NCBI GenBank assembly: GCA_965224195.1
Contig: OZ245040.1
Coordinates: forward strand, 1,996,249 to 2,060,248
Length of the DNA stretch: 64,000 bases
DNA from: Nitrosopumilus sp.
GTDB lineage: Archaea > Thermoproteota > Nitrososphaeria > Nitrososphaerales > Nitrosopumilaceae
Direction of reading: 5' to 3'
The position numbers and the translations under genes are program-made. Positions 49,300-64,000 of this stretch are shown here, in pieces; positions within the stretch are counted from its first letter, which is position 1, and every line of letters starts with the position of its first letter. The notes beneath the pieces are model-generated. The model worked only from the letters and a program-made list of their open reading frames with translations. It searched no databases and was not told the origin of the DNA.

Positions 49300-51012
49300 C
49301 TAGTATTTCCTCTCCACTGGCTGATACTTGGTAATTGTGACTGGATGTGTTTTCATTATTGGTTCGTTTGGATCATAATAAGCAAGAGTATGATGTAAAA
49401 AGTTAGCATCATCACGTTTTGGATAATCAGTTCTTGCATGAGCTCCGCGAGATTCTTTTCTATTAATTGCACCAAGCAAGACAATCTCGGCTACTCTAAA
49501 CATAGAGTCAAGCTCCATCACATTTGCAAAATTGGTGTTGTACTCTTTTGCTTTATCATCCACATGTTTCCAAGTCTGTTTCTTTAAATCTCGAATTGTT
49601 TTAAGACCTTCAATCAGATTGGTTTCATTTTTGTAGACATATGCTTTATCATTCATTGTGTCAGTAAGCTGTTGTCTAATTTCATATGGATTAACATCAC
49701 CACTTCCTCTAAAGATTCCATCATAGATTCTCTTTTCTTCAGCTGTAACCATATGATGTGGCCAAGGATTTGTTTGTGGGTTATTTTGTATATAGTCAAT
49801 TGCTAATTCGCCTGTGATTTTACCCCAAACAATACATTCAGACGTCGAATTTGCCCCTAAACGATTAGAACCATGAGCACTGTTACATGCGGCCTCTCCT
49901 GCAGCCCAAACTCCTTGAATTTCAGTTGCACCATCAATGTCAGTATGTAGTCCACCCATCATGTAATGGCATACAGGTCTAATGTCAAGTAAATCCGTTG
50001 CAGGATCTTGACCTGAAAATTTAATAGATATTTCTCTAATTCCACCTAATTTTTCTTTGATTTTTTCATCACCAAGATGTCGTAAATCAAGTTTCATACA
50101 ATCCTCACCAGTTTCATGTTTGAATCCTCGGCCTTCTTGAATTTCAGTCATTATTGATCTTGATACAATATCACGTGGAGCTAATTCCATTTTACCTGCT
50201 GCATATGTTTTCATAAATCGTTCACCCTTGTTGTTAAGAAGATAACCGCCTTCGCCTCTTGCACCCTCAGTGATTAGAATGCCAGACGGTAAAATTCCAG
50301 TTGGATGGAATTGAACAAACTCCATGTCTTTGAGTGCCATACCAGCACGTAATCCCATATCCAAGCCATCAGGAGTTGAAGAAAGAGCATAAGTAGAAAA
50401 GCTGTATAATCTTCCAGCACCGCCAGTTGCAATGATGAGAGCTTTTCCTCTGATAGTGTAAAAATTACCAGAGCCTAATTCAATTGCAGTGACACCCATG
50501 AATCGTTTACCATCATGAATAATTGATGTAACAAACCATTCGTTAAGATATTCAATATTCTCAAATTTTTGACATGTATCATACAAAGTTTGCATTTCAA
50601 AGAAACCGACTTTATCAGATGCATATGTTGCTCTAGGAAAACTATAGCCTCCAAAGTTTCGTTGATCAATTCTTCCATCCTTTCGTCTTGACCATGGCAT
50701 TCCCCAATGATCTAATTGATGAATTTCTTGTGGCATTTCAACACAGAGTCTTTCAGCAACATCTTGGTCTGCAAGAAAGTCACTTCCTTTTACAGTATCA
50801 TAAACATGAGATTCAATAGTATCACCCTCATCCTCAAAAAGAACTGCAGCAGTTCCACCTTCTGCTGAAACAGAATGAGAGCGCATTACTTGGACTTTGG
50901 AGACAACTCCAATTTTGAGATGAGGTCCTTTTTTTGCAGCGGCAATGGCTGCTCGCAGGCCTGCTAATCCAGAGCCACAAATGATCAAGTCAAACTCTAT
51001 GGAATCTGCCAT
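49300..51012 (-). CDS. sdhA: Succinate dehydrogenase flavoprotein
   Basis: RSHSVSAEGG FAD attachment, QFHPTG, HGSNRLGANS, ESRGAH. Confidence 0.97.
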   Translation of the reverse strand: MADSIEFDLIICGSGLAGLRAAIAAAKKGPHLKIGVVSKVQVMRSHSVSAEGGTAAVLFEDEGDTIESHVYDTVKGSDFLADQDVAERLCVEMPQEIHQLDHWGMPWSRRKDGRIDQRNFGGYSFPRATYASDKVGFFEMQTLYDTCQKFENIEYLNEWFVTSIIHDGKRFMGVTAIELGSGNFYTIRGKALIIATGGAGRLYSFSTYALSSTPDGLDMGLRAGMALKDMEFVQFHPTGILPSGILITEGARGEGGYLLNNKGERFMKTYAAGKMELAPRDIVSRSIMTEIQEGRGFKHETGEDCMKLDLRHLGDEKIKEKLGGIREISIKFSGQDPATDLLDIRPVCHYMMGGLHTDIDGATEIQGVWAAGEAACNSAHGSNRLGANSTSECIVWGKITGELAIDYIQNNPQTNPWPHHMVTAEEKRIYDGIFRGSGDVNPYEIRQQLTDTMNDKAYVYKNETNLIEGLKTIRDLKKQTWKHVDDKAKEYNTNFANVMELDSMFRVAEIVLLGAINRKESRGAHARTDYPKRDDANFLHHTLAYYDPNEPIMKTHPVTITKYQPVERKY

Positions 51013-51567
51013 TTTTCAATCAAACTTGCTTTAGGCTGGATAAATATGTAATAGTTGGTAGGCATGATCCAAATTACGTCATGAAACGGCCGGTTCTTCT
51101 CGTGCCACAGAATGGCTGATATGTCCTGCTATTAATTCCAATTTTCAGCTAGAAAATTCATCAGATTTTCATCACCAATCTGGCCAAGCAACTGACTTTT
51201 TTGGTTTAAAAAACATCATTCTAGGCTGTTGCTGTAATTGTTGATACTGCTTATCGCAAACTGAAATGAGTATCGTCCATCCTGTCCTTCAATGTTGCAA
51301 GGGGTATTTTTCTATCAACATCGTAATATTGTATGTATCTGGCATAATTTTATCTACTTCATGTAAAGCCAAGACTGAAAACTTGATCTGTTCATGTATA
51401 AGACTTTAATATTATCCATAAAATCTGATTTTCCATCCATCATTGCCTCTTGAACTTTAGGCCAAAAATGTTCTCGAATTGCACCTAATGGAAAACTATG
51501 ATTTTCTGTTGCTCAAAACGCTAATTCTGCATTGAAAATGGAATATAAAATTATTTGCAATAGAATG

Positions 51568-51679
51568 CTGTAGCAATTTCTTAAATTGACAAAGATGCTT
51601 TTTAGCAGTCCAATTGCCTTTACATCGTCTGTCCACTGGTCCTGTAGCAATTTCTTAAATTGGCAAAGATGCTTTTTAG
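51568..51679. repeat. Repeat-spacer-repeat unit 1 (38/36/38 bp)
   Basis: CTGTAGCAATTTCTTAAATTG(A/G)CAAAGATGCTTTTTAG at 51568-51605 and 51642-51679. Confidence 0.92.
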
Positions 51680-51817
51680 ATTCAAGTGTATAACAATGCT
51701 AGTGTTCAATAGAAAGAAAACATCGATGTGAAAAAAATAAAAAGAACCGATCATTTCATTCTATATTTTTGTAAATTGTATGATCTTTTTTATAGATCCA
51801 AGATCAAAATTGAATTA

Positions 51818-53176
51818 TTGTCATTTATTGAACATAAAGTTGGAAATACTCTTTGGCATGAAATTGCTCATAAGATGTATCCGGATAAAACATCTAGTTT
51901 TAGAGAGGCTATCTCAAATTCTCTTGATGAAGGTTCTTCAAAAATTATTGTGGAAATTCATCCAGATAAAATAACTATTGAAGATTTTGGTGATGGCATT
52001 GATGATATGGACAAGTTTATCATGGTAGGTCATGATGGTAAGTTGCAAAGAGAAAACAAACGTTCAACTATTGGTCAGAAAGGAATGGGGAAACTATCGT
52101 TATTAATACTTGGAGATGAAGTCACTTTTCTGTCAAATAATGGTAGAGTTGGTTATAAATTTCGAATGATAGAAGGGGGTCAATACAGAGAAACTCCTAG
52201 TAGTGTAGATCAATATTTACCTCATAAAGGTACCTTTATTGAAATTCCCAATCCCAAAAAGAGATGGGATGTAGAAAAAGTCAGAGTTTTTCTCAAAAAA
52301 GCATTCTCACTTCAAGTTGCTATGGGGAAAGAAATTATCATTAATAGTAAACCACTCAAAGCTCCAAAATCAATTCAAACAAAAGAGACATTTATCTTGG
52401 CGCTTAAAGGCAATCGTAAAGTTACAGGAAATCTACAAACAGTTGAGAAAAATTATGGTTCAGTCAATGTATATGTCCAACATGTTTTTATCACCAATTT
52501 AATGATTGATCCAGAACGTAAATTTACTGGGTGGGTTAATTGTGATAGTTTAATTCCAACTGCATCACGTTCTGATTTGTATGAAGATGACGATGGAATC
52601 AAAGAAGAATTTATCAAACAAATGATGAAGCATGTTCAGAGATTCCCAAAAGCAAATGAACAAAAACAATCATCACATATGCTAACAGAACAAGAAAATA
52701 TTATGGATAATGTTCTCAAAGAACTCAAACTAGAATTTAGAGGTGAAGTATTAGCTGCAATTGGCAATGTAAAAAAAATGGATGCACAATCAATTAATGT
52801 TGTTGATAGAACAGGAGACCAGAAAATTCAACAAGCAAAAAATCCTCAAGATAATACTAACAAATCGTCTAAAAGAGAGAGAAAAACAAAGTCTGGAGTA
52901 ATATGGAGAAATGCACAATTAGGAAATGAAAAGCCACCTTATTTGTTTAGTTGGCCTAACATAATCATTAGAAATACTACCAATGATATTTACAAATATT
53001 CTACAAAAACTAGTAGTTCTTTAGGTCCCGCAAAGGTGAGATACTTACAATTTTATGCTAGATTAATTGCTACCATGCATCCAGACAAAAAATATTGGAG
53101 TACAGCAGAATTCCTTGATAAAGCAGATAAATATTATAATGTATGTCTAAAATCAGTAGGATATATAGACAATTAG
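51818..53176 (+). CDS. GHKL-superfamily ATPase (MORC/Hsp90-like)
   Basis: REAISNSLD, EDFGDG, GQKGMGK, KGT boxes followed by an S5-like region; start uncertain (frame open from 51728). Confidence 0.88.
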   Translation: MSFIEHKVGNTLWHEIAHKMYPDKTSSFREAISNSLDEGSSKIIVEIHPDKITIEDFGDGIDDMDKFIMVGHDGKLQRENKRSTIGQKGMGKLSLLILGDEVTFLSNNGRVGYKFRMIEGGQYRETPSSVDQYLPHKGTFIEIPNPKKRWDVEKVRVFLKKAFSLQVAMGKEIIINSKPLKAPKSIQTKETFILALKGNRKVTGNLQTVEKNYGSVNVYVQHVFITNLMIDPERKFTGWVNCDSLIPTASRSDLYEDDDGIKEEFIKQMMKHVQRFPKANEQKQSSHMLTEQENIMDNVLKELKLEFRGEVLAAIGNVKKMDAQSINVVDRTGDQKIQQAKNPQDNTNKSSKRERKTKSGVIWRNAQLGNEKPPYLFSWPNIIIRNTTNDIYKYSTKTSSSLGPAKVRYLQFYARLIATMHPDKKYWSTAEFLDKADKYYNVCLKSVGYIDN

Positions 53177-53188
53177 AGAGAAGCTACT

Positions 53189-53590
53189 TTGATGGAAAAT
53201 CCAAAGCAAATATGTTATGTTTGTGATCAAGAAGGTGAAGAAGAACATATTACAGAAAATGATGGCAAAGTGCATGTGTTTTTTATCCATAAAAAAGAAA
53301 GTGGTGCAGGAAGACCTAAGAGATGTGATGGCGGTTATGAAGAAACAGAGGCAGAATTTATGCATGCATTAGAGGAAGGTGATGAATCTGATCAAAAACT
53401 AAAATTAATTGATAATTCAAAAAGAGTTGCAAAAGGCTATTCGCGTATTGCTTTAGAGGCCACTACAGAAGTATTTGTTAAAATGTATATGCATACTTGT
53501 CAAAGATGCAATCACAATTGGATTACCAAAGAACAATTACCTACAGCATGTAATAAATGTACATCACGTACATGGAATATGGCAAAATAA
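53189..53590 (+). CDS. Double zinc-ribbon protein
   Basis: N-terminal CYVC..H..C; C-terminal CQRCNHNW..PTACNKCTSRTW. Confidence 0.8.
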   Translation: MMENPKQICYVCDQEGEEEHITENDGKVHVFFIHKKESGAGRPKRCDGGYEETEAEFMHALEEGDESDQKLKLIDNSKRVAKGYSRIALEATTEVFVKMYMHTCQRCNHNWITKEQLPTACNKCTSRTWNMAK

Positions 53591-53768
53591 TTAATTTCCA
53601 ATAATATTTGAAATTAATTATAATTTATTATTTTACTAAAAAAATACATACACACAGACGCTTTTCAACGATTTAAACAAATTAACTATTTTTGTGATGT
53701 ATTAATGACATAAAATTTGCAGGAAATTTTTCTTAATCTAATCCGCCTTTCTACTGCTTTCTAGAAAC

Positions 53769-54016
53769 ATGTTGGCAAAAATGACAAGTCCACATTCCCC
53801 AATACATTATGAAAGCATACCTTTCAAAAGATAGGAGGAGGCAACAGTATGCAGGTAATGTCGTCACTTCACACCATGAAAGAAATAGGATTAGCATCTT
53901 CTGTTATGGTAAAAAGAGATCCCGGTTCTTTCAGAGAATAGGCTGTAACTTCAGAAGGCAGGGCACCAGTTGACAAACACATATCAAAAGAGCTTGAGAA
54001 ATGCTTCAAGCTTTAA
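53769..54016 (+). pseudogene. Winged-HTH regulator remnant
   Basis: ..SSLHTMKEIGL..RE*AVTSEGR wing motif, with a frameshift and a TAG. Confidence 0.5.
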
Positions 54017-54578
54017 TTTATTTCAAATTTTTATTCTCACTTGTGTTTTGAATATTTCGATTCTAGTCGCTAATTTTTCAGGATTTCTGATTTAGGGTTG
54101 GCACTCTAGAATCTCAATTTTTTTCTCCATAATTTCAAAAATTGACTTTACAGATGAGAGGCATTCTTTAAAATTAAAATTACAAGTTGACGTGATGCCA
54201 TCAGTTACTCTTGATATTTTCAGTCATTTCTTTCTGAAGATCAATTGGTGAAATCAGCTGTTTGCCTAAAACTCCAAGATATTGAAATTTTTCAGATTTT
54301 ATTCTTGAAGCATAATCCTGATCTTGTTCATTTTAAATTTTATTTGCCCATTTGTTAAAGTATTTACAGACTGTTGTGATGTCATGATTTGTCATTTCCA
54401 TAACAGTGTATGCAGATGCAAAAAAGAAACCTGATAAGGGATTTTCATATATTTTGTTATTCCAATGGGTGTTATTGTGAAGATCCTCAGCTTTTTCCAT
54501 TTGAATAATTTGAGAAATTGATTAAAAATTTGTAGTTATTCCCAAGTCTCAACTATCTAAACAAAATATTGATGGAAA

Positions 54579-54824
54579 CTAAGAACGAGATTTGTATAAA
54601 TCTACAAATTCATTATACGAAATTCCAAACAATGGAATTATTTTCTGAGCCAATTCTTTGAATATGGAATTAGATTTTTTTATTGGAATGATAACGGATC
54701 CTGCCCGTTGATAATAAACATAGGCATTTCTATATTTTGAAAATGATTTGTAACCTAGTATTGTAGTAACTACGTAATGGATTTGATTCCAATGATGCGT
54801 TTTTCTTGATTTGGTACGTTCCAT
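54579..54824 (-). CDS. HicA-like protein
   Basis: Helix-LGY-strands-IIP-helix-FGISYNEF pattern; downstream of hicB-like gene. Confidence 0.65.
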   Translation of the reverse strand: MERTKSRKTHHWNQIHYVVTTILGYKSFSKYRNAYVYYQRAGSVIIPIKKSNSIFKELAQKIIPLFGISYNEFVDLYKSRS

Positions 54825-55017
54825 GTCCTACATTCTTTTTGATGGCTTTGTATGCCTGGGGACATGTTTTAAAGTAACCATCTAAAACAATATCCATTTC
54901 TTTTTTCAATTCTTCTTTGGTTTTTGCTTCTGTAAATATTTGTGGAAACTGAACACATTGTCCAATATATCCACTGGAAGTTTTTTCAATATTGTATCCA
55001 ACAGTAGGGGTATTCAT
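54730..55017 (-). CDS. HicB-like antitoxin
   Basis: GYIGQCVQFPQIFTEAKTKEEL matches the HicB N-terminal pattern. Confidence 0.8.
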   Translation of the reverse strand: MNTPTVGYNIEKTSSGYIGQCVQFPQIFTEAKTKEELKKEMDIVLDGYFKTCPQAYKAIKKNVGHGTYQIKKNASLESNPLRSYYNTRLQIIFKI

Positions 55018-55046
55018 ACTATATTTTATAAAATATTAGTTATAAA

Positions 55047-56115
55047 AGATGAGTTGTGCAATTAGTCCAATTTGAGCATAATCTCAACATTTTCTAATCA
55101 TAAGATCCAAAGCTAAGACTGAATTATTTTCAATTCATGTTTAATTACGCAAAACTGGCAAAAAAACCAAAACAATTCCTGTCAATAGCAGGACTAACTG
55201 TTCCACAGTTTGATTCCCTATACAAAGAAATAAAGAAAAATTGCAAAACTGCAGAACAAAAGGGATTATCCAAAAATAGAGAAAGAGACATTGGTGCAGG
55301 ACACAAGTTTGACTTGTCCTTCAAAGGCAGAATTCTAATGTTTTTCATGTACTACAGAATGTACACAACATATGACATGCCAGGGATGACATTTGATTTG
55401 GACAAACCAAACGTAATGAGAAACATCAGATGTTTGGAGCCTGCAGTGAAGCAGTCCATTACAATTGCTGCCAAAAAATATGCAGATTCAAAAGAGATTA
55501 ACGGCATGCAGGAATTGCAGGAATTCTTTCCGGAATTAGTTGCAATCACTGATGGCACAGAACAGCCCATCCCAAGACCAAAAAACAAAAAGAAAAGAAG
55601 GACACGCCATTCAGGCAAAAAGAAAAAGCATGCAGTACAAAATCAAATCGCCATAAATCCTGATGGGATAACAATCCACAAATCTGCACATTCGCCTGGC
55701 AGCCATCATGATTGCAGAATTTACAAATCAAAGCATCCAACATTATCTGAAGGGTTGCTGCAGTCTTATGATCCTGGATGTTTGGGGATGGAAAAAGATT
55801 TTCCAGAACAGGCAAGTGTTTTGCCATGCAAGAAAAAGAAAGGAAAAAAATTGACTGTTACTCAAAAGGAGTGGAACAGGATGCAGTCAAAAATTAGAAT
55901 AAAAGTTGAACATGTCATTGCACAAGTCAAGCAATTTCGGATAAATCGCGATGTGTTTAGAAACAAATTATGCAGATATGATGTGATAAGTGAAATTGTT
56001 TGTGGGACTGTCAGTTTCAAGATTAAATGAAAAGAAGAATTCATTGCAATTCCATAAAATTAAGAATTAAATGACAGAAAAGTTAGATTTTTGCTTGTAA
56101 TTACGCAACTCATCT
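55047..56115 (+). mobile_element. IS5-family (ISL2/IS702-like) element
   Basis: 18-bp imperfect TIR AGATGAGTTG(T/C)G(C/T)AATTA at both ends; TSD not resolved. Confidence 0.85.
55137..56030 (+). CDS. DDE transposase (probably degenerate)
   Basis: TDGTEQPIPRP, HSGKKKKH, GSHHD, RIKVEHVI; the usual D(L/K)GY appears as DPGC. Confidence 0.88.
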   Translation: MFNYAKLAKKPKQFLSIAGLTVPQFDSLYKEIKKNCKTAEQKGLSKNRERDIGAGHKFDLSFKGRILMFFMYYRMYTTYDMPGMTFDLDKPNVMRNIRCLEPAVKQSITIAAKKYADSKEINGMQELQEFFPELVAITDGTEQPIPRPKNKKKRRTRHSGKKKKHAVQNQIAINPDGITIHKSAHSPGSHHDCRIYKSKHPTLSEGLLQSYDPGCLGMEKDFPEQASVLPCKKKKGKKLTVTQKEWNRMQSKIRIKVEHVIAQVKQFRINRDVFRNKLCRYDVISEIVCGTVSFKIK

Positions 56116-56482
56116 AATGTTCTTTCACTGATTCAAGCTGCTGCCTTTTGCAGTGTGGTAAAATGCGGAATTGTTTTGAGCTGCAATTGTAATTCAGTTT
56201 GTGTTTGGTAGTGCGAATTCAAATATGTGGTAAAATACGGAATTGTTTTGAGCTGCAATTGTAGAACAGTCTCAGTTGCAGCATCCAGCCATTCAACAAA
56301 ACTCTCATAATTTTTTGACTCGTACTGTCGGGGACTAGCAGTATGATGTGTTGATGTATTGAAAATGTATGCTTTGATTTTGAATGCAAAACAACGAGAC
56401 ATTCATTTTCTTTAGAATCTGGTGCATGAGGGAGATCATCATGCGTTGGTATTTGTTTTTCATGAAATGGAATGATTCCCAA
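56116..56482 (-). pseudogene. Possible transposase remnant carrying repeat unit 2
   Basis: APDSKEN resembles AYDSxxN; after removing spacer plus one repeat the frame ends HCKRQQLESV, like YxxRxxxES. Confidence 0.4.
56154..56263. repeat. Repeat-spacer-repeat unit 2 (38/34/38 bp)
   Basis: TGTGGTAAAAT(G/A)CGGAATTGTTTTGAGCTGCAATTGTA at 56154-56191 and 56226-56263. Confidence 0.92.
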
Positions 56483-56981
56483 TAATTGATGGATCTGAGC
56501 GGTTAGTTTGATTAATAATCAGGTAAAATATTAATGATTTCTAGGAAGCCACTGTGGGGTTCTGTCACCTAGTGTGATCGGTCATAAAATCTTCATGTTA
56601 ACTGTCGTGAGTTTTGAGATATTTTAAAAAAATTCACTGCAACAGTGGTGATTAAACCAAAATCACTAGACATATCTATACAAAATCCATTTTAGTTCAA
56701 TAGACGTATATTATCTAAGTGCATATGTATTTTCTGCCATATCTGAAGGTCAGCCAGAATTTGATGTGAGAAACATCTTTGGGGTATTAGTACAACTGAC
56801 CCATCTGGCAGTCCAGATAGAAACTACTACAAAATGTTTAATGCTTGGGAAAACATCACAGCATCTCTAAATCTTCAATAGCTCTTCTTTTTTTTATTTC
56901 AAAAATAATTATCTGTATGGATAATGGAATATTGGATTTGATTCAGAATAAAATGTTGAACTTATCCAATACCCTCTAATG

Positions 56982-57089
56982 CGTTGCAACTGATACCAGA
57001 TCGGCAGATCCCAGACAGGAACTTCCGCTAGTAGATCCGTTGCCACAATCTACGTTGCAACTGATACCAGATCGGCAGATCCCAGACAG
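56982..57089. repeat. Repeat-spacer-repeat unit 3 (37/34/37 bp), CRISPR-like
   Basis: CGTTGCAACTGATACCAGATCGGCAGATCCCAGACAG identical at 56982-57018 and 57053-57089. Confidence 0.93.
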
Positions 57090-57343
57090 TCATCACATCT
57101 CTTCTCGTATCGGATTTGTTCTGTGGGCCCATTTCTGGGCTAGGCAAGGAGCCTCAGCACAGCACAACGAACCGGATTGTATTTCCTGCATGGTCTGGTT
57201 TCCGGTGATCTACTACTCTTTCCAAACGAAATGCATGCAGCGGCGTCTCTGTTTTTCATGCGTTCTCAAACGGACATACTGTCGCATCATTGCTTGTCTG
57301 CACAGACTGCCGCAACCACCATAATTTGTCCAAATGATCAGCT

Positions 57344-57505
57344 TTAAGACGGGTTGCCGACAGACTTTCTCAAACACTCGTTGATTACGCTGGAATAGCT
57401 AACAGATTTGTTTCTGGTTTGAATCTGTTTTGCCTGAAGCATTCTTAATTTTTTGTCCAGCGAATCATCCATCATAATTGTGACTCTTTTGCCATGATTT
57501 CGCAT
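57344..57505 (-). CDS. Small ribbon-helix-helix protein
   Basis: KRVTIMMDDSLDKKLR...SYSSVINECLRK. Confidence 0.75.
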   Translation of the reverse strand: MRNHGKRVTIMMDDSLDKKLRMLQAKQIQTRNKSVSYSSVINECLRKSVGNPS

Positions 57506-57539
57506 CTTATTACCATAATTTATCAGTATTCGGTACGAG

Positions 57540-58466
57540 TCATGCAGAATTGTTTTGCCTGTACTTTCTAGATGTGGCAGCAGCAACTGCAACAACAACA
57601 ATGCCCACAGGCAGCACCCCATACATCAGTAAGTTAAGCACGATGACAAACGAGCCGTGCAGTACGACTGAGAGTTCGCTGGCAGGATCTGCCAGACCCA
57701 TCACATTTAACGAGTACATCATTGGGGTAATGTATATCTTGACTGCCTCTCTGAACATGGGATTCTCCCGCTGATAGTCTGAGACTAGTGGCGAGAATGC
57801 ATAATAAAGCGAGTTAAATGACTCCATAAAGATGCCTGCTGACTGTGTGTGAGAGAGCTGGTTGTCCCTTATTTCACGCAGCATCTGGACTTGGGGTGCC
57901 AGTTCTGTTCCGTAGGCAGCTGTGGCAATGAGGCATCCGCCTCCATTGCTACTGCCACCACCATTGCTGTTCTCATCAGTACTCACAGCGGATTCTGCCA
58001 CACATTTACCGTCATGCAAAATTGTACCCAGACCGCACGTCATCTCTTTTGCAGACTCTGGAACATATCCATCAGGCACATCACCACTACTATCATCACT
58101 TTGTTTGACAGTTACAGTACCGCTCATCCACGGCTGCAGCGATGAGAAAAACTCAACAGAGCCGGATTTCACAAAGGTGTAAGAGAATGACCCGTTAGGT
58201 AAAATCACACCTGAATCAAACAGATCACCTGCATCATCATCGAGAATCCTGCCAGATACAACGCCGACAGGATATGACTGTTCATTGTGCCATGTTACGG
58301 TGTCATGCTGGCTTATCTGCATCAGATGGGCAGACCAGCATGTGGCATCCTCCTCACACCCAGGAAAATTATCACTGGCAGCAACAAACACGTCATATGA
58401 TTCAGCATACACCATTCCGACTGGAACAAGCAAAATCAATAAAAGGATGCAGAAAAAATCATACAT
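57540..58466 (-). CDS. Secreted cupredoxin-fold protein with CFI-box-CTERM domain
   Basis: Signal peptide, DTVTW.N, FDSG, PWMSGTVTV; GGGCLIATAAYGTELAPQVQMLREIRD; C-terminal TM. Confidence 0.9.
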   Translation of the reverse strand: MYDFFCILLLILLVPVGMVYAESYDVFVAASDNFPGCEEDATCWSAHLMQISQHDTVTWHNEQSYPVGVVSGRILDDDAGDLFDSGVILPNGSFSYTFVKSGSVEFFSSLQPWMSGTVTVKQSDDSSGDVPDGYVPESAKEMTCGLGTILHDGKCVAESAVSTDENSNGGGSSNGGGCLIATAAYGTELAPQVQMLREIRDNQLSHTQSAGIFMESFNSLYYAFSPLVSDYQRENPMFREAVKIYITPMMYSLNVMGLADPASELSVVLHGSFVIVLNLLMYGVLPVGIVVVAVAAATSRKYRQNNSA

Positions 58467-58490
58467 TGTTAAACCACATCACCAAGTCCA

Positions 58491-61400
58491 TTATTTTAAG
58501 ATGCCCACCATGTAAGACAAGACTGTCTTTAGCTGCTCTACTGAAATCTGATTTTTATATACCATCTCTCCAAAGTATTTCTTTATCCATTTTGGCAATG
58601 ATACGTCAGGTGGCAGGTTATTTGTAATGCCAAGTGACTTTATCAGCTCAGCATCAGTTGCAGAGAATTCAGAGTATCCTGCCCATCTCTTTATCATCTC
58701 ATTTTGCTTTTTGATGGCATCAGTGCTCTGGGTGTTTGATGATGGTGGCAGTTTAATCACCTCATCATCTTGGGCGATGGCTGTCTTTGATGCATCAAGG
58801 CATGTTCCATCATGATTCATTACCTGCTCAGACAGACATGCAAAGGTTCCAGGTTCAGGGTCCATACATAAGCCATTATCCAGCAACAATTTGCCTGCAT
58901 CACATGATGATGTGATATAGTGTCAGATGATGAAGAGGAACTACCGCCTGATGATGAAGAGGAACTACCGCCTGATGATGAAGAGGAACTACCGCCTGAT
59001 GATGATGCAATGTCAGATGATGATGCGGTGTCAGATGAAGAACCTTGCGCATCATTCTGTGCTGTTACAGTCAGAGCATTATGAATGGTAAATGTCAGGG
59101 CATTTCGCCTGTCATCCCATGCATATATTTGAATGTCAGAGGTATCCATTGCTTTGCCAAAGGTTACAGAATAGTCCCATGTTGCAACGCGTACATCAAC
59201 TTTGGTAATACTGACAGACGCATTCTCAATTAGTCCGTTTGGATCAATTATTTTCAGGGAGTTGCTGTTATTATCATTGTTGCCATCATTGTATTTTTTG
59301 TCCCAGACTAGTTTTGTGTCACTGTCACATATTTGGTTGTTTGATATTTGCTTGTTCAAACACAGCTCAACATGAGAGATGCTCTCCCATGACATGTTAT
59401 CGTGCATTGTCAATGATATCGGGATTGATTGGCCTGTCTGTACTAGTACGGGGTTGTCTAGTGTATAATCTAATCGGGATGGCTCTGGAGATATTCCCAC
59501 TGTTCCGATGAATATGGTGTCAGTTCCCCCATCAAAGGAGGTGGGGAATGAAGGCGGAGTGGACTCGGTACTGCTGCCTCCTCCAGAACTACGACCAGTT
59601 CCTGGAATGGTAATGGCATTGTCTGCTACTGGAACTATTTGATTACCTGAAACATCAGATACTGCTCCTTTCAGGATGTCCAGTTGTGGGGTAGTCAGTG
59701 CAATGACTGATTCCCTTTGGGGTGCAGTCAGCTCAATTGATATTGAAGCATTGTTGCCGACAGTTTCAATGCTGGCACCAGTCAGTGAAATATCATTGGC
59801 ACTTGCTGACTCACTGATGAACAGTTTGGATAGGTCAACTGGAGTGGTTAATGTGTACTCGTGGATACTGTTACTGCTGGTACCTACAACAAACATCTTT
59901 GTTCCAGTAGGGTTGAATGCTACACCTGTTGGAAATGATTCCTCGTCAGATACTGAGAAATTGCGTTTATAGTCGGAGGAGGATACGTCAAAGGGAGAAG
60001 ATAATTCGTACTCGTAGATCTTCTCACTTTGAGAATCTACAACAAACATCTTTGTTCCAGTAGGGTTGAATGTTACATCTTTTGGATGCGTGTCCTGTGA
60101 ACCTACTGAGAAATGGTGTGTATAGGAGGAGGAGGATATGTCAAAGGGAGAAGATAATTCGTACTCGTAGACATTCGTACTTTGATAACCTAAAACAAAC
60201 ATCTTTGTTCCAGTAGGGTTGAATGCTACACCTGTTGGATCCGTGTCCTGTGAAGATATTGAGAAATTGTGTGTATAGGAGGCAGTGGATAAGTTAAAGG
60301 GAGTAGTTAATGTATACTCGTAGATCTTTTCATTTTGATAACCTGCAACAAACATCTTTGTTCCAGTAGGGTTGAATGTTACATCTTTTGGATGCGTGTC
60401 CTGTGAACCTACTGAGAAATTGCGTGTATAGGAGGCAATAGATACGTCAAAGGGAGAAGATAATGTGTACTCGTAGATCTTTTCACTTTGAAAATCTACA
60501 ACAAACATCTTTGTTCCAGTAGGATTGAATGTTACGCTTTCTGGTTCCGGGTCCTTGTTAGATACTGAGAAAGAGTTGTCTGTATAGGCGGCAGTGGATA
60601 CGTCAAAGCCCTCGTTTGCTATTATCTCATCAAAAGTTATTGCCAGAACTCCGGTTCCCTCATCTAGTGTTGCTGACTCTAATGTTGGCGGGGTATTATC
60701 AGCAGATGGTGATGGCGGTGTGCCTGCACCATCATTTACTACTGCAAGCATATTAAAGGAGGCAGATACCGGAGATGATTCCACAGTATATTTTGATCCA
60801 ACGGCAGCATATGCAACTACATGTACATTGTATGACTCACCCGGTGTCAGGCCTGTTACCATATATGAGGTGTCATCTACAGTGTCGCCGAGTTCAGAAC
60901 CGTCAGAACTAATGACAGTCACTTGATAAGCCACATCATCAATGGTATAATACTCATTGGCATCCACTGTAGGTGCAGTCCAAGTGATTTCAGCGGCTGT
61001 GCCGTTTATGACATTGACTAAAAGGTTAGTTGGCGCATCAGGTGACGGAGGTGTCGGCATATCAAAGGATACAGCTGCGGTAGGTTGGGAGGATATAGCG
61101 GTTAAATCTGACAACAAGGCTTTTGCCTCTACGGTTACCTGATAAGATTTGTCAAGTATCAGGCCTGTTGCCGTATGTGTGGTAGTGGTGCCGTCAGATA
61201 TGGTATACAGTACGGTGGTGCTAGCAGCAACATCAGTGACATTCACGAGATAGGATACGGAATTAATATCATAAAATGAATTGGCAGGTATTGTAGGTGC
61301 AGTCCAAGTGATTTCAGCGGCTGTGCCGTTTATGACATTGACTGAAAGGTTAGTTGGCGCATCAAGTGATGGCGGCGGCACTACACTGTTAGTTACTGCA

Positions 61401-64000
61401 ATGGCATTGTTTGGTGATGCACCTATTTGATTGCCTGAAACATCAGATACTGCAGCAGATAATATGTCCAGTTCTGGGGTAGTCAATGCAATGACTGACT
61501 GTCTTTGAGATTCAGCCAGCTTGATTTCTATGGAGGTGCTGTTGCCGACAGTTGTAATTCTGGCACCAGTCAGTGAAATATCATTGGTATTTCCTGACTC
61601 ACTGATGAATAGTAGGGATAGATCAACTGGAGTGGTTAATGTGTACTCGTGGACACTGTCACTGCCAATACCTACAGCAAACATCTTTGTTCCAGCAGGG
61701 TTAAATGCTACACCTGTTGGAGATGTGTCCTGTGAAGATACGTCGAAAGTGCCTGTATGGGAGGGATCAGATATGTTAAATGGGGCAGTTAATGCGTACT
61801 CATTGACATTACCATTACTATTACCTATAACAAACATCTTTGTTCCAGATGGGTTGAATGTTACATCTTGTGGAGACCTTTCCTGTGAAGATACTGAGAA
61901 AAGGCGTACAAAAGAGGAGTTAGATATGTTAAATGGGGAAGACAGCGTGTACTCGTTGATATTCCCATTGTCAGTACCTACAACAAACATCTTTGTTCCG
62001 TCTGAGTTGAATGCCACACCTGACGGAGATGTGTCCTGTGAAGATACTGAAAAGTCCCGTATAAAGGTGGGGTCAGATAAGTTAAAGGGAGAAGATAATG
62101 TGTACTCGTAAACATTCTCACTTTGAAAATCTACAACAAACATCTTTGTTCCGTCTGTGCTAAATGCCACATCTGTTGGAAGCGGGTAGTTTGAAGATAC
62201 TGAGAAAAGACGTACAAAGGAGGGGTTAGACATGTCAAAGGGAGAAGACAGCGTGTACTCATGGATGGCACCACTGCTGGTACCCACAACAAACATCTTT
62301 GTTCCGTCTGGGTTGAATGCTACACCTGACGGAGACGTGTCTCTGTTAGATACTGAGAAAGATCTGTCTGTATAGTCAGCAGTAGACAAGTCAAAGCCCT
62401 CGTTTGCAATTATCTCATCAAAAGTTATTGCCAGGATTCCGGTCTCCTCATTTAGTGCGGCTGAATGAAATGTTGGCGGGGTATTATCAGGTGTAACTGC
62501 AGTAGGACTGCCCGGTAATGGCGGCTGTACAGCATTGGTGGTAGTCACGGCATTGTCTGATGCTGCGTCAATGGCGTTTCCTGATATGTCCTGTACGGCA
62601 CCTACCCCAATGTCAAGCCACGGTGTGAGAGAGTTTGCAAGTGCTGTGCTTACCTGGGTTGGGGTCAGCTGAATCAGGATTTCAGTGCTGTTGCCTGCTG
62701 TTTGAACTGCCGCACCGGCAAGCGATGTCTGGTCTGTCTGTCCAGATGCGCTGAGGAACAGCTTTGCCAGGTCAATGCCTCCAGATTGTCTGTTGTCTAT
62801 TCTCTCATCAAATACAATTGTCAGCATGCCAGTACCTGCATCAAATCCTGCAGACACAAAGGCGGGCTTTACAGTATCAGCAGTGACATTCACGGCATTG
62901 TTTGGTGATGCGGTATTAGGATTGCCTGAAACATCATATACTGCTGCTGGCATAATGTCCAGTTGCGGTTCAGTAGAGTTGCCAATTACGTTGGTCCTCT
63001 GCCTCTCAGTTAGGGTAATTGCGATCTCGGCGTTGTTGCCAGTTGTGTCAATGCTTGCACCGGCAAGCGGTGTCTGGTTTACTGTATTGGGTGCGCTAAG
63101 GAACATCTTTGCCAGGTCAATGTCTGAGGACTGGGTGTTGCGTATTATCTCATCAAATTTAATTGTCAGTTTGCCAGTACCTGCATCAAATGTTACAGAA
63201 TACAAATCAGGCCCTAGGTCATCTACAATGACAATGTTACTGTTCATACCCAGCGAGCCAAAGGTCCCCGGAGGGTTTACGCTCAGTACAATTCCTTTTG
63301 GAGGCAGCGTCAGGACGGCATTGGCGTGCGGGAATGCGGCATCGCGAATGGTGCCGCCACTTAGTTCCAAGGAATTCATATCAAGATATTCAAGTTCAGG
63401 CGAGCTGTCACCAGGCTGAATTAAATAAGTAAAATGCAGCGTGTCAGTGTTGTTGCCTGAGGCATAATCAGCTATGCCAAAACCAAAGAGACCGTTGTGT
63501 ACATTCAGAGAGATATTCGGTGTGCCAGTAACAACTACAGGCGCAGAAAAGTGCACAGAGACGTCAATTAGTTCGTAAGTGCCATATGTGCCGTCAACAG
63601 TGTCAGAGGAGACGGCATTTACAACCACCTCCTTTTGCATATACATTACATATATGGCGCCTATGGTGTTTCTAGCGCTGAAATACATGTCTGCACCTAC
63701 TGCAATATCTACAGTGCCATCGCCGTTAAAATCACCAATGCCTGTGACGGATGTGCCGAAGCGGTCATAGTTGGAGAGTGAGGGGATGTTTGGAGTAGTG
63801 TCATCGATTTTTTTGATATTTTTTACGGTGCCGTCAGGATTCATGAACATTACGTAGACGGTACCTCTCTCAGTTCCTCCAGTATCATCATTATATGCAC
63901 CCACTGCAATGTCTGCAACGCCGTCGCCGTTGATGTCGCCAATGTTTGCGATGGATGTGCCAAACTGGTCATTGTTGGAAAGAGCAGCAGGGCCGTTTGT
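58491..64000 (-). CDS. Giant surface protein (FG-GAP repeats, Ig-like repeats, two beta-propeller repeat blocks, two Fn3); 5' end outside window, frameshift near 58910
   Basis: GDINGDGVADIAVGA FG-GAP; ten 51-aa FNPxGTKMFV repeats; APTNL..ITWTAP Fn3; ORF 58491-58889 (LPKWIK tail) continues it in the adjacent frame. Confidence 0.88.
58926..58997. repeat. 3 x 24-bp tandem repeat encoding a Ser/Gly linker
   Basis: GATGATGAAGAGGAACTACCGCCT three times. Confidence 0.95.

Follow-up and report, generated by a model that had tools for sequence, protein, structure and literature searches.

Isolated repeat-insert-repeat units in a wild Nitrosopumilus chromosome: probable products of off-target CRISPR spacer integration

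Arrays formed away from any established CRISPR locus, so-called neo-CRISPR arrays, were reportedly described in 2018 (Nat Microbiol) by Nivala, Shipman and Church, who obtained them by non-canonical spacer integration in Escherichia coli in which Cas1-Cas2 was overproduced. The arrays treated by Shmakov et al. in 2020 (CRISPR J) are said to have been called by array finders and often to contain several spacers, or repeats resembling the cognate repeat. Viruses and plasmids carry mini-CRISPR arrays and solitary repeat units, which hold one or two spacers away from cas genes and have repeats that match the host system and can thereby be used by its Cas proteins. Casposons and transposons also leave direct repeats, by repair of the staggered cuts of a Cas1-family or DDE enzyme; the inserted element is long and self-encoding, and the duplications are short. 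Here, we describe three repeat-insert-repeat units in a stretch of 64,000 nucleotides (hereafter, the window) from the archaeon Nitrosopumilus sp., together with a class of such units scattered over the same chromosome, and we propose that the units very probably arose by off-target, full-site integration of spacers by the resident Cas1-Cas2 complex, helped by Cas4.

The units share with the E. coli neo-CRISPR arrays a spacer-sized insert, a repeat-length duplication of a non-CRISPR target, and a position away from the array. They differ in that the E. coli events were rare and arose under overproduction of a type I-E system in a laboratory strain, whereas those described here are fixed in wild-type archaeal chromosomes bearing type I-G and I-B modules with Cas4, with duplications of 36-37 bp. 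Rare off-target events in E. coli were found by deep sequencing, according to a review (PMC7054753). Off-target integration in nature is regarded as rare and harmful in PMC13769266 and bioRxiv 10.1101/148544, and the latter calls the evidence for natural neo-CRISPR formation in two other species "circumstantial." In PMC6698737, Pyrococcus furiosus Cas1-Cas2 is described as integrating in vitro outside CRISPR loci, at sites that have G/C at a spacing of one repeat length. That system resembles ours in its paired attacks one repeat-length apart, G/C borders, weak likeness to the repeat, and insert orientation that is not fixed; it differs in using plasmids in vitro at a 30-bp spacing, whereas the present sites are chromosomal, were used in vivo at 36-37 bp, and have been selected for being tolerated. 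Off-target acquisition is also one proposed origin of isolated or orphan arrays (PMC13142298, citing Shmakov et al. 2020). Our units have the same proposed origin but possess one insert each and a repeat unrelated to the canonical one. Like the viral and plasmid mini-arrays they are short and distant from cas genes, but their repeats match no resident system. In contrast to casposons and transposons, the inserts are 34-40 bp long and all different, the duplications are 34-37 bp, and there is no casposase-type Cas1. Neither for this archaeal group nor for any wild genome did we find single-spacer units reported as fixed by the dozen, in a search that did not reach every relevant paper or the supplements, where natural examples may be listed. 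The proposed mechanism is neo-CRISPR formation as already described; within the limit of that search, its natural scale here is unreported.

The window corresponds to C1:1996249-2060248 of the genome (designated G000). A repeat search of window positions 50500-58500 returned exactly the three units on which the original prediction was built, with repeat/insert/repeat geometries of 38/36/38, 38/34/38, and 37/34/37 bp. Their parts, to which no strand is assigned, are as follows (window coordinates).

51568-51605, unit 1, copy 1: 38-bp duplicated target, with 0 differences in contigs of the public runs X1, X2, and X4
51606-51641, unit 1, insert: 36-bp putative ectopic spacer, with no match elsewhere in the genome, in the phage records, or (for a 22-mer) in IMG/VR
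51642-51679, unit 1, copy 2: 1 mismatch relative to copy 1
56154-56191, unit 2, copy 1: 38-bp duplicated target
56192-56225, unit 2, insert: 34-bp ectopic spacer, missing from two paralogues and from the homologue in another species (G048)
56226-56263, unit 2, copy 2: 1 mismatch; target within a multi-copy element immediately to the right of an insertion sequence (IS)
56982-57018, unit 3, copy 1: 37-bp duplicated target, the two copies being 100% identical
57019-57052, unit 3, insert: 34-bp putative ectopic spacer
57053-57089, unit 3, copy 2: identical to copy 1, with partial homology in G048

Since exact 37- to 38-mers recur 71-74 bp apart within 64 kb, the arrangement is not due to chance. 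In unit 2, a weaker match (87%) carries the repeat on to 52 nt, and the true duplication of unit 1 is probably 36-37 bp plus a chance extension. The three repeats share no sequence with one another, as originally observed, and are also unrelated to the canonical CRISPR repeats of the genome. Support in assembled public data covers units 1 and 2, which are reproduced with 0 differences in contigs of X1 and X2, two runs of one study that possibly used the source sample. These contigs span 56089-56299 around unit 2, and a contig of X4, from a second study, reaches from repeat 1 of unit 1 through the insert into repeat 2. Unit 3 is unbridged in the listed contigs, which end inside its two identical 37-mers (at 57011 and 57060).

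The three units belong to a much larger set. The genome comprises 2.07 Mb at 33.6% GC, and its chromosome, C1, 2.06 Mb. We scanned the chromosome at every period from 30 to 200 bp, extending 12-nt exact seeds with mismatches; a two-copy repeat was called isolated when no other repeat lay within 400 bp, and a unit was called core when its repeat length (L) was 34-39 and its period was 70-76 bp. The scan returned 1615 close direct repeats, 68 of which were isolated and two-copy. Core geometry was found in 28 of these 68 (automatic, uncurated calls), with just 1 other isolated repeat having L 34-39, and the remaining 39 were spread over L 20-117 and gaps of 1-156 bp. The genome-wide length distribution, a broad form of which would have refuted the original prediction, is a sharp peak. 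Three further core units have a neighbouring repeat, which brings the total to 31. Outside the arrays, 64 candidates with a period of 62-80 and L 28-50 were curated by eye; 26 were removed because their flanks continue a tandem or coding repeat (e.g., the 814087-815455 cluster, 131912, 433387, and 1016493), which left 38 clean units, including the 31 core units. Core lengths have their mode at 36-37 (8 units of 36 bp, 10 of 37 bp, and 7 of 38 bp), and units of 30/36, 30/39, and 29/37 (repeat/insert) exist too. The two repeat copies are identical in 20 of the 28 isolated core units. Isolated units always consist of two repeat copies and one insert, with no multi-spacer case, and all inserts of the 38 clean units differ from one another. 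Odd duplications of 25-49 bp at a CRISPR-like period (70-80) were also seen at C1:798295, 1619794, 923061, 1129510, 813401, and 1277616; these may be slipped-ruler integrations or decayed units, and 798295 has an empty-site paralogue.

The dimensions of the class are those of the resident CRISPR loci. No cas gene lies in the window, in agreement with the original prediction: no Cas1 or Cas2 match occurs there, and all three Cas1 and all three Cas2 genes of the genome are found at 0.71, 0.95, and 1.46 Mb, one pair beside each of three arrays, with Cas4 at all three loci.

C1:707205-713740, array A: 90 repeats of 36 nt, spacers of 34-42 nt (mode 36-37), type I-G
C1:941990-946529, array B: 69 repeats of 30 nt, spacer mode 36, with Cas4, Cas1b, and Cas2
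C1:1457181-1466783, array C: 132 repeats of 37 nt, spacer mode 35-36, I-B-like

The set beside array A comprises a Cas4g/Cas1g fusion (715 bits), Cas2, Csb2, Cas3g, and Csb1/Cas7g, and that beside array C comprises Cas7/Csh2, Cas5b, Cas3, Cas1, Cas2, and Cas4. As there are only three Cas1 genes and all of them are CRISPR linked, the genome has no casposase. Cas1 matches in open frames of 409-442 amino acids, up to three per genome, were seen in the relatives G044, G067, G006, G060, G070, and G014; by their length, these may be casposase-type Cas1, and G000 has none of them. Duplication length matches canonical repeat length, and insert length matches spacer length, for two size classes. The comparison with canonical arrays and cas1/cas2 that had been called for thus shows the unit peak coinciding with the 36- and 37-nt repeats and the 34- to 42-nt spacers, and the core-unit periods (71-76) compare with 70-78 in array A and 69-78 in array C (outliers at 84 and 85). 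The repeats themselves are no closer to the canonical ones than random DNA is: when the 38 units and 3000 random sites were compared with each canonical repeat, the best ungapped identities were 14.3 versus 14.4, 15.4 versus 15.8, and 13.2 versus 13.3.

These dimensions suggest a route for unit formation, in which we infer both the acting Cas1 and the chemistry. The complex would attack a non-CRISPR site on both strands, at positions separated by one repeat length (about 36-37 bp), and a spacer-sized fragment of 34-40 bp would be joined at that site; gap repair would then duplicate the target on either side of the insert, so that a "neo-CRISPR" with one spacer arises, flanked by repeats of ordinary host DNA. 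Most likely, the agent is the type I-G module, with its Cas4/Cas1 fusion and 36-nt repeat, because the units of a relative (G009) without a 37-nt array peak at 36. The 37-nt I-B-like module may contribute, which would fit the flatter length distribution in G000, and the class of duplications of about 30 bp fits the third module, with its 30-nt repeat.

That the units are insertions is best seen from empty sites. Of the chromosome, 14.4% is multi-copy (megablast), and since many units lie in multi-copy elements, the same genome supplies sites for comparison. Eleven units (1363425, 1541050, 1549643, 1639458, 1692970, 1718775, 1892823, 1973078, 2052402, 1159163, and 798295, designated by C1 position) have empty-site paralogues in the chromosome, which hold one target copy and no insert, and in pairwise alignments of closely related pairs the gap is exactly one period, i.e., repeat plus insert. 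Five paralogous copies of the IS that contains 1639458 have a single 37-bp target and lack the 34-bp insert, and two empty-site paralogues exist for 1892823. Unit 2052402 is unit 2 of the window; its empty paralogues lie at C1:1629746-1629471 and C1:1268689-1268968, with a gap of 72 bp, and the homologous element in G048 likewise has a single target copy and no insert. These alignments prove that unit 2 of the window is an insertion that duplicated its target. Units 1 and 3 of the window, for which no empty site was found, are assigned to the class by their geometry only. The search for empty single-copy alleles, which the original prediction had urged, was in this way successful for the eleven units and for unit 2 in G048. 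The converse arrangement, in which relatives would carry the insert DNA in place with only one repeat copy, was not seen, the empty sites being without insert. At unit 3, homology with G048 (69%) spans the 3' part of copy 2 and the right flank, which indicates that copy 2 and the right flank are older contiguous sequence; this homology is weak and gives no clean empty site. An empty site for 739057 was sought in relatives and rejected, since the homology (84-88%, four relatives) stops at the unit edge and the N-terminal part of the gene differs. No orthologous DNA spanning 1326527 or 1490408 was found in the 60 other genomes sampled from the genus, with two short one-flank matches for the former (G005 and G006) and none for the latter.

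The empty sites also bear on the simplest alternative, namely, that the units are plain tandem duplications of about 73 bp, produced by replication slippage and seen as 1.5 copies. Formally, a repeat-X-repeat does equal 1.5 copies of a 71- to 76-bp unit, but at the empty sites both the insert and the second repeat are missing, which refutes slippage for the eleven units, and neither the seven inserts copied from distant loci nor a sharp length peak at CRISPR dimensions is accounted for. This alternative has next to no likelihood. Target-site duplication around a CRISPR-sized insert is also what the original prediction had supposed in proposing that a Cas1-Cas2-type integrase with a fixed ruler had acquired spacers ectopically. 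The proposal is supported by the length peak, the resident cas1 and cas2 genes, the empty sites, and the distant origins of inserts.

Seven of the 38 inserts are full-length copies of distant chromosomal loci (0-3 mismatches), with the homology ending at the insert borders (units 173581, 690211, 886994, 898236, 907258, 911485, and 1892823). These seven calibrate the true duplication at 34, 35, 36, 36, 37, 37, and 37 bp. The GC content of the inserts is 0.409, compared with 0.40-0.42 for canonical spacers and 0.336 for the genome. The comparison of the window inserts with viral data, another check proposed at the outset, was negative: none of the three has a match in 50,697 phage records (E up to 1), and the 22-mers of inserts 1 and 3 are absent from IMG/VR.

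None of the 288 canonical spacers matches the genome outside the arrays. We read the contrast between 7 of 38 self-derived inserts and 0 of 288 self-derived spacers as selection, in which self spacers in working arrays are lethal and are purged, whereas self fragments in ectopic units would be harmless, to judge from repeats that differ from those of the system. We infer that the units are not processed into CRISPR RNA because their repeats are unlike the canonical repeats, and this would explain why self inserts are tolerated in units yet absent from arrays.

The opposite view, that some units are working mini-CRISPR arrays, transcribed and processed for defence or regulation, is very improbable. 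The units are CRISPR shaped, and the identical repeat copies in 20 of 28 show youth or conservation; nothing more direct speaks for it. Their repeats, however, are unrelated to the canonical repeats that would be needed for Cas6-type processing, each unit has one insert, many units lie inside open reading frames or IS copies, and self-matching inserts are tolerated in them, whereas the canonical arrays hold none. Nor do the repeats of the window units fold better than their dinucleotide-shuffled counterparts (z from -0.6 to +0.8, both strands), so that the short internal hairpin that had been noted in each of them loses its significance.

The self-derived inserts may carry information on where fragments are captured. 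The source of insert 907258 lies in an Orc1/Cdc6 gene (C1:194940-196151; Cdc6_C, 73 bits), and an ectopic insert of G009 (unit C1:1800775) maps with 33/36 identity to the Orc1/Cdc6 gene of G000. Three of the seven self sources in G000 fall within 195-235 kb, for which a rough estimate of chance clustering gives a p of about 0.04. There may be an origin-proximal acquisition hot spot near orc1/cdc6.

Of the 61 genomes sampled from the genus, 24 gave a Cas1 match; among the relatives, G048 and G017 have only the Cas1 that belongs to the 30-nt system, and G051 has only the fused Cas4/Cas1. The same scan was applied to 1.2 Mb each of a cas1-positive relative (G009) and a cas1-negative one (G007). 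G009 has two Cas1 genes, one of them fused, and arrays of 36-nt repeats (nearly identical to those of array A) and of 30-nt repeats. Of the 34 isolated repeats in its sequence, 16 were core units, no two of which had the same repeat and whose mode L was 36; one unit of 30/38 was found as well. G007, in which no Cas1 match was found at 99% completeness, gave 1 core unit among 14 isolated repeats. The contrast of 16 to 1 has a binomial p of 0.00014, for one genome of each kind. G000 thus has about 30 fixed events and G009 has 16 in the 1.2 Mb scanned, or about 13-15 per Mb. One insert of G009 (C1:1872101-1872208) equals positions 6-40 of a 40-nt spacer in its I-G array (C1:1995542-1995581), the shared stretch being 35 nt plus one base equal to the first base of the next repeat. 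Either one invader region supplied both, or the array itself supplied the insert; on both readings, the ectopic units are tied to the CRISPR spacer pool.

At the sites chosen, G or C is favoured at the repeat borders: it occupies 38 of the 62 in G000, where 33.6% is expected (p 7.5e-6), and 18 of 34 in G009 (36.9% expected, p 0.04). The 3' end of all three canonical repeats is an octamer like ATTGAA[AG]C; at the unit repeats it is modestly enriched at one end in G000, and its enrichment was not significant in G009 (3/17 and 4/17). Motifs of the 5' repeat end were not enriched in G000 (0/31 versus 7.9% and 5/31 versus 14.2%). An orientation-aware expectation-maximization model reached a log-likelihood of 172, compared with 94.6 +/- 6.4 for 30 random sets, and the signal is diffuse, with at most 0.5 bit per position. 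As to location, 15 of the 31 units are no more than 100 kb away from an array, compared with 9.3 expected (p 0.024), and multi-copy DNA, which makes up 14.4% of the genome, flanks 9 of 31 (p 0.027). Neither effect is strong, and the excess near arrays and in multi-copy DNA is probably in part survivorship.

Several observations weigh against the attribution to Cas1-Cas2. The ATTGAA[AG]C-like end is weak, being present with at least 6/8 matches in 7/31 units versus 9.3% of controls and in 11/31 versus 13.5%. Duplication lengths spread over 34-39 bp, partly through chance extension, and the seven calibrated cases still range from 34 to 37. For 31 of the 38 inserts there is no match elsewhere in the genome, and their source was not found. 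For two of the window units there is no empty site to compare with: at unit 1 none of the relatives matched, and at unit 3 there is only the partial homology (69%) in G048. The contrast between cas-positive and cas-negative genomes compares one relative of each sort over 1.2 Mb. The agent is deduced from the match in length and from co-occurrence, a core unit persists in the cas1-negative G007 (38/34, 1 mismatch, C1:660163), and the seven self protospacers have no motif in common in the 3 nt to either side, whichever the orientation.

The common protospacer-adjacent motif (PAM) that the original prediction had hoped for was thus not found at these protospacers, and its absence is surprising for Cas4-assisted type I adaptation. 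Canonical spacers gave no matches in their own genome or in relatives from which a PAM could have been derived. Three repeats of 43-44 bp with gaps of 29-31 bp and 2-3 mismatches were also seen in G007 (C1:517108, 895902, and 897852), of which 517108 and 897852 are reverse-complement copies of one sequence. These and the core unit of G007 may be old and date from a cas-bearing past, or may have been brought by mobile elements.

The missing PAM, the indirect identification of the agent, and the unit in G007 would all suit an integrase or repair pathway unrelated to Cas that has a 36- to 37-bp stagger and inserts short fragments, with the CRISPR lengths matched by coincidence. We consider such a coincidence decidedly improbable. 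It would have to hold for two independent lengths, the duplication with the repeat and the insert with the spacer, and again for the second class of about 30 bp, which matches the 30-nt array. It would also have to hold in G009, where the arrays have only 36- and 30-nt repeats and the units have their mode at L 36. An insert that overlaps a canonical array spacer and the 16 versus 1 units in the cas-positive and cas-negative relatives speak for integration by the resident Cas1-Cas2 complex.

Integration of this kind would affect genes. We removed one repeat and the insert in silico and compared the open frames. Removal joins frames of 327 and 120 amino acids into one of 414 at 739057, 215 and 115 into 308 at 1228750, 197 and 117 into 284 at 1490408, and 144 and 162 into 279 at 1639458; it lengthens a frame from 287 to 324 at 1363425 and from 265 to 276 at 1892823, and it turns frames of 98 and 108 into one of 155 at 682088. 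Units with periods of 72 or 75 are in frame and lie inside open frames of 331, 230, 1136, 176, 127, and 259 amino acids. The original description of the targets as neutral DNA is, therefore, only partly right, because several units sit in or disrupt open reading frames. CRISPR adaptation would thus be a source of gene disruption and of in-frame insertions, and its fidelity can apparently be low in vivo for I-G and I-B modules with Cas4. The natural off-target sites, of which there are dozens and many of which can be set beside a matched empty site, could be used to learn what the integrases recognize, and fragments unfiltered by autoimmunity bear on how far self and non-self are discriminated at acquisition or by later selection.

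A broader reading would join these points, and we hold it tentatively, as something that falls just short of probable. It takes the I-G Cas4/Cas1-Cas2 machinery of this archaeal lineage to be so leaky in the wild that it is itself mutagenic, and the silent units to be an unselected sample of acquisition, about one-fifth self, with no PAM and a possible hot spot at orc1/cdc6. If the I-G machinery is leaky in this sense, some genes are broken by it, others gain 24-25 codons in frame, and IS copies are hit. If the units are silent, they escape the autoimmune purge that cleans real arrays. Together, they would offer a natural read-out of how self and non-self are told apart when fragments are acquired.

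Within the window, unit 1 is intergenic, between an sdhA-like gene (49300-51012, minus strand) and an HATPase_c_3 gene (51728-53176, plus strand). The IS to the left of unit 2 is not part of the units.

55041-56119, plus strand: IS element with a DDE_Tnp_4 transposase, the transposase open reading frame being at 55137-56030

It has many chromosomal copies that are 97-99% identical, and very high summed depth in the public-run contigs. The second contig of the genome, C2 (7434 bp, 31% GC), resembles no part of C1 and matches no spacer over more than 14 nt. To the right of the units, window positions 57000-64000 are GC-richer (0.42-0.47, compared with about 0.33), and this stretch contains a repetitive secreted-type protein of 1694 amino acids (58820-63904, minus strand), the gene of which has repeats of 153/306 bp that recur, in inverted order, near C1:530-533 kb.

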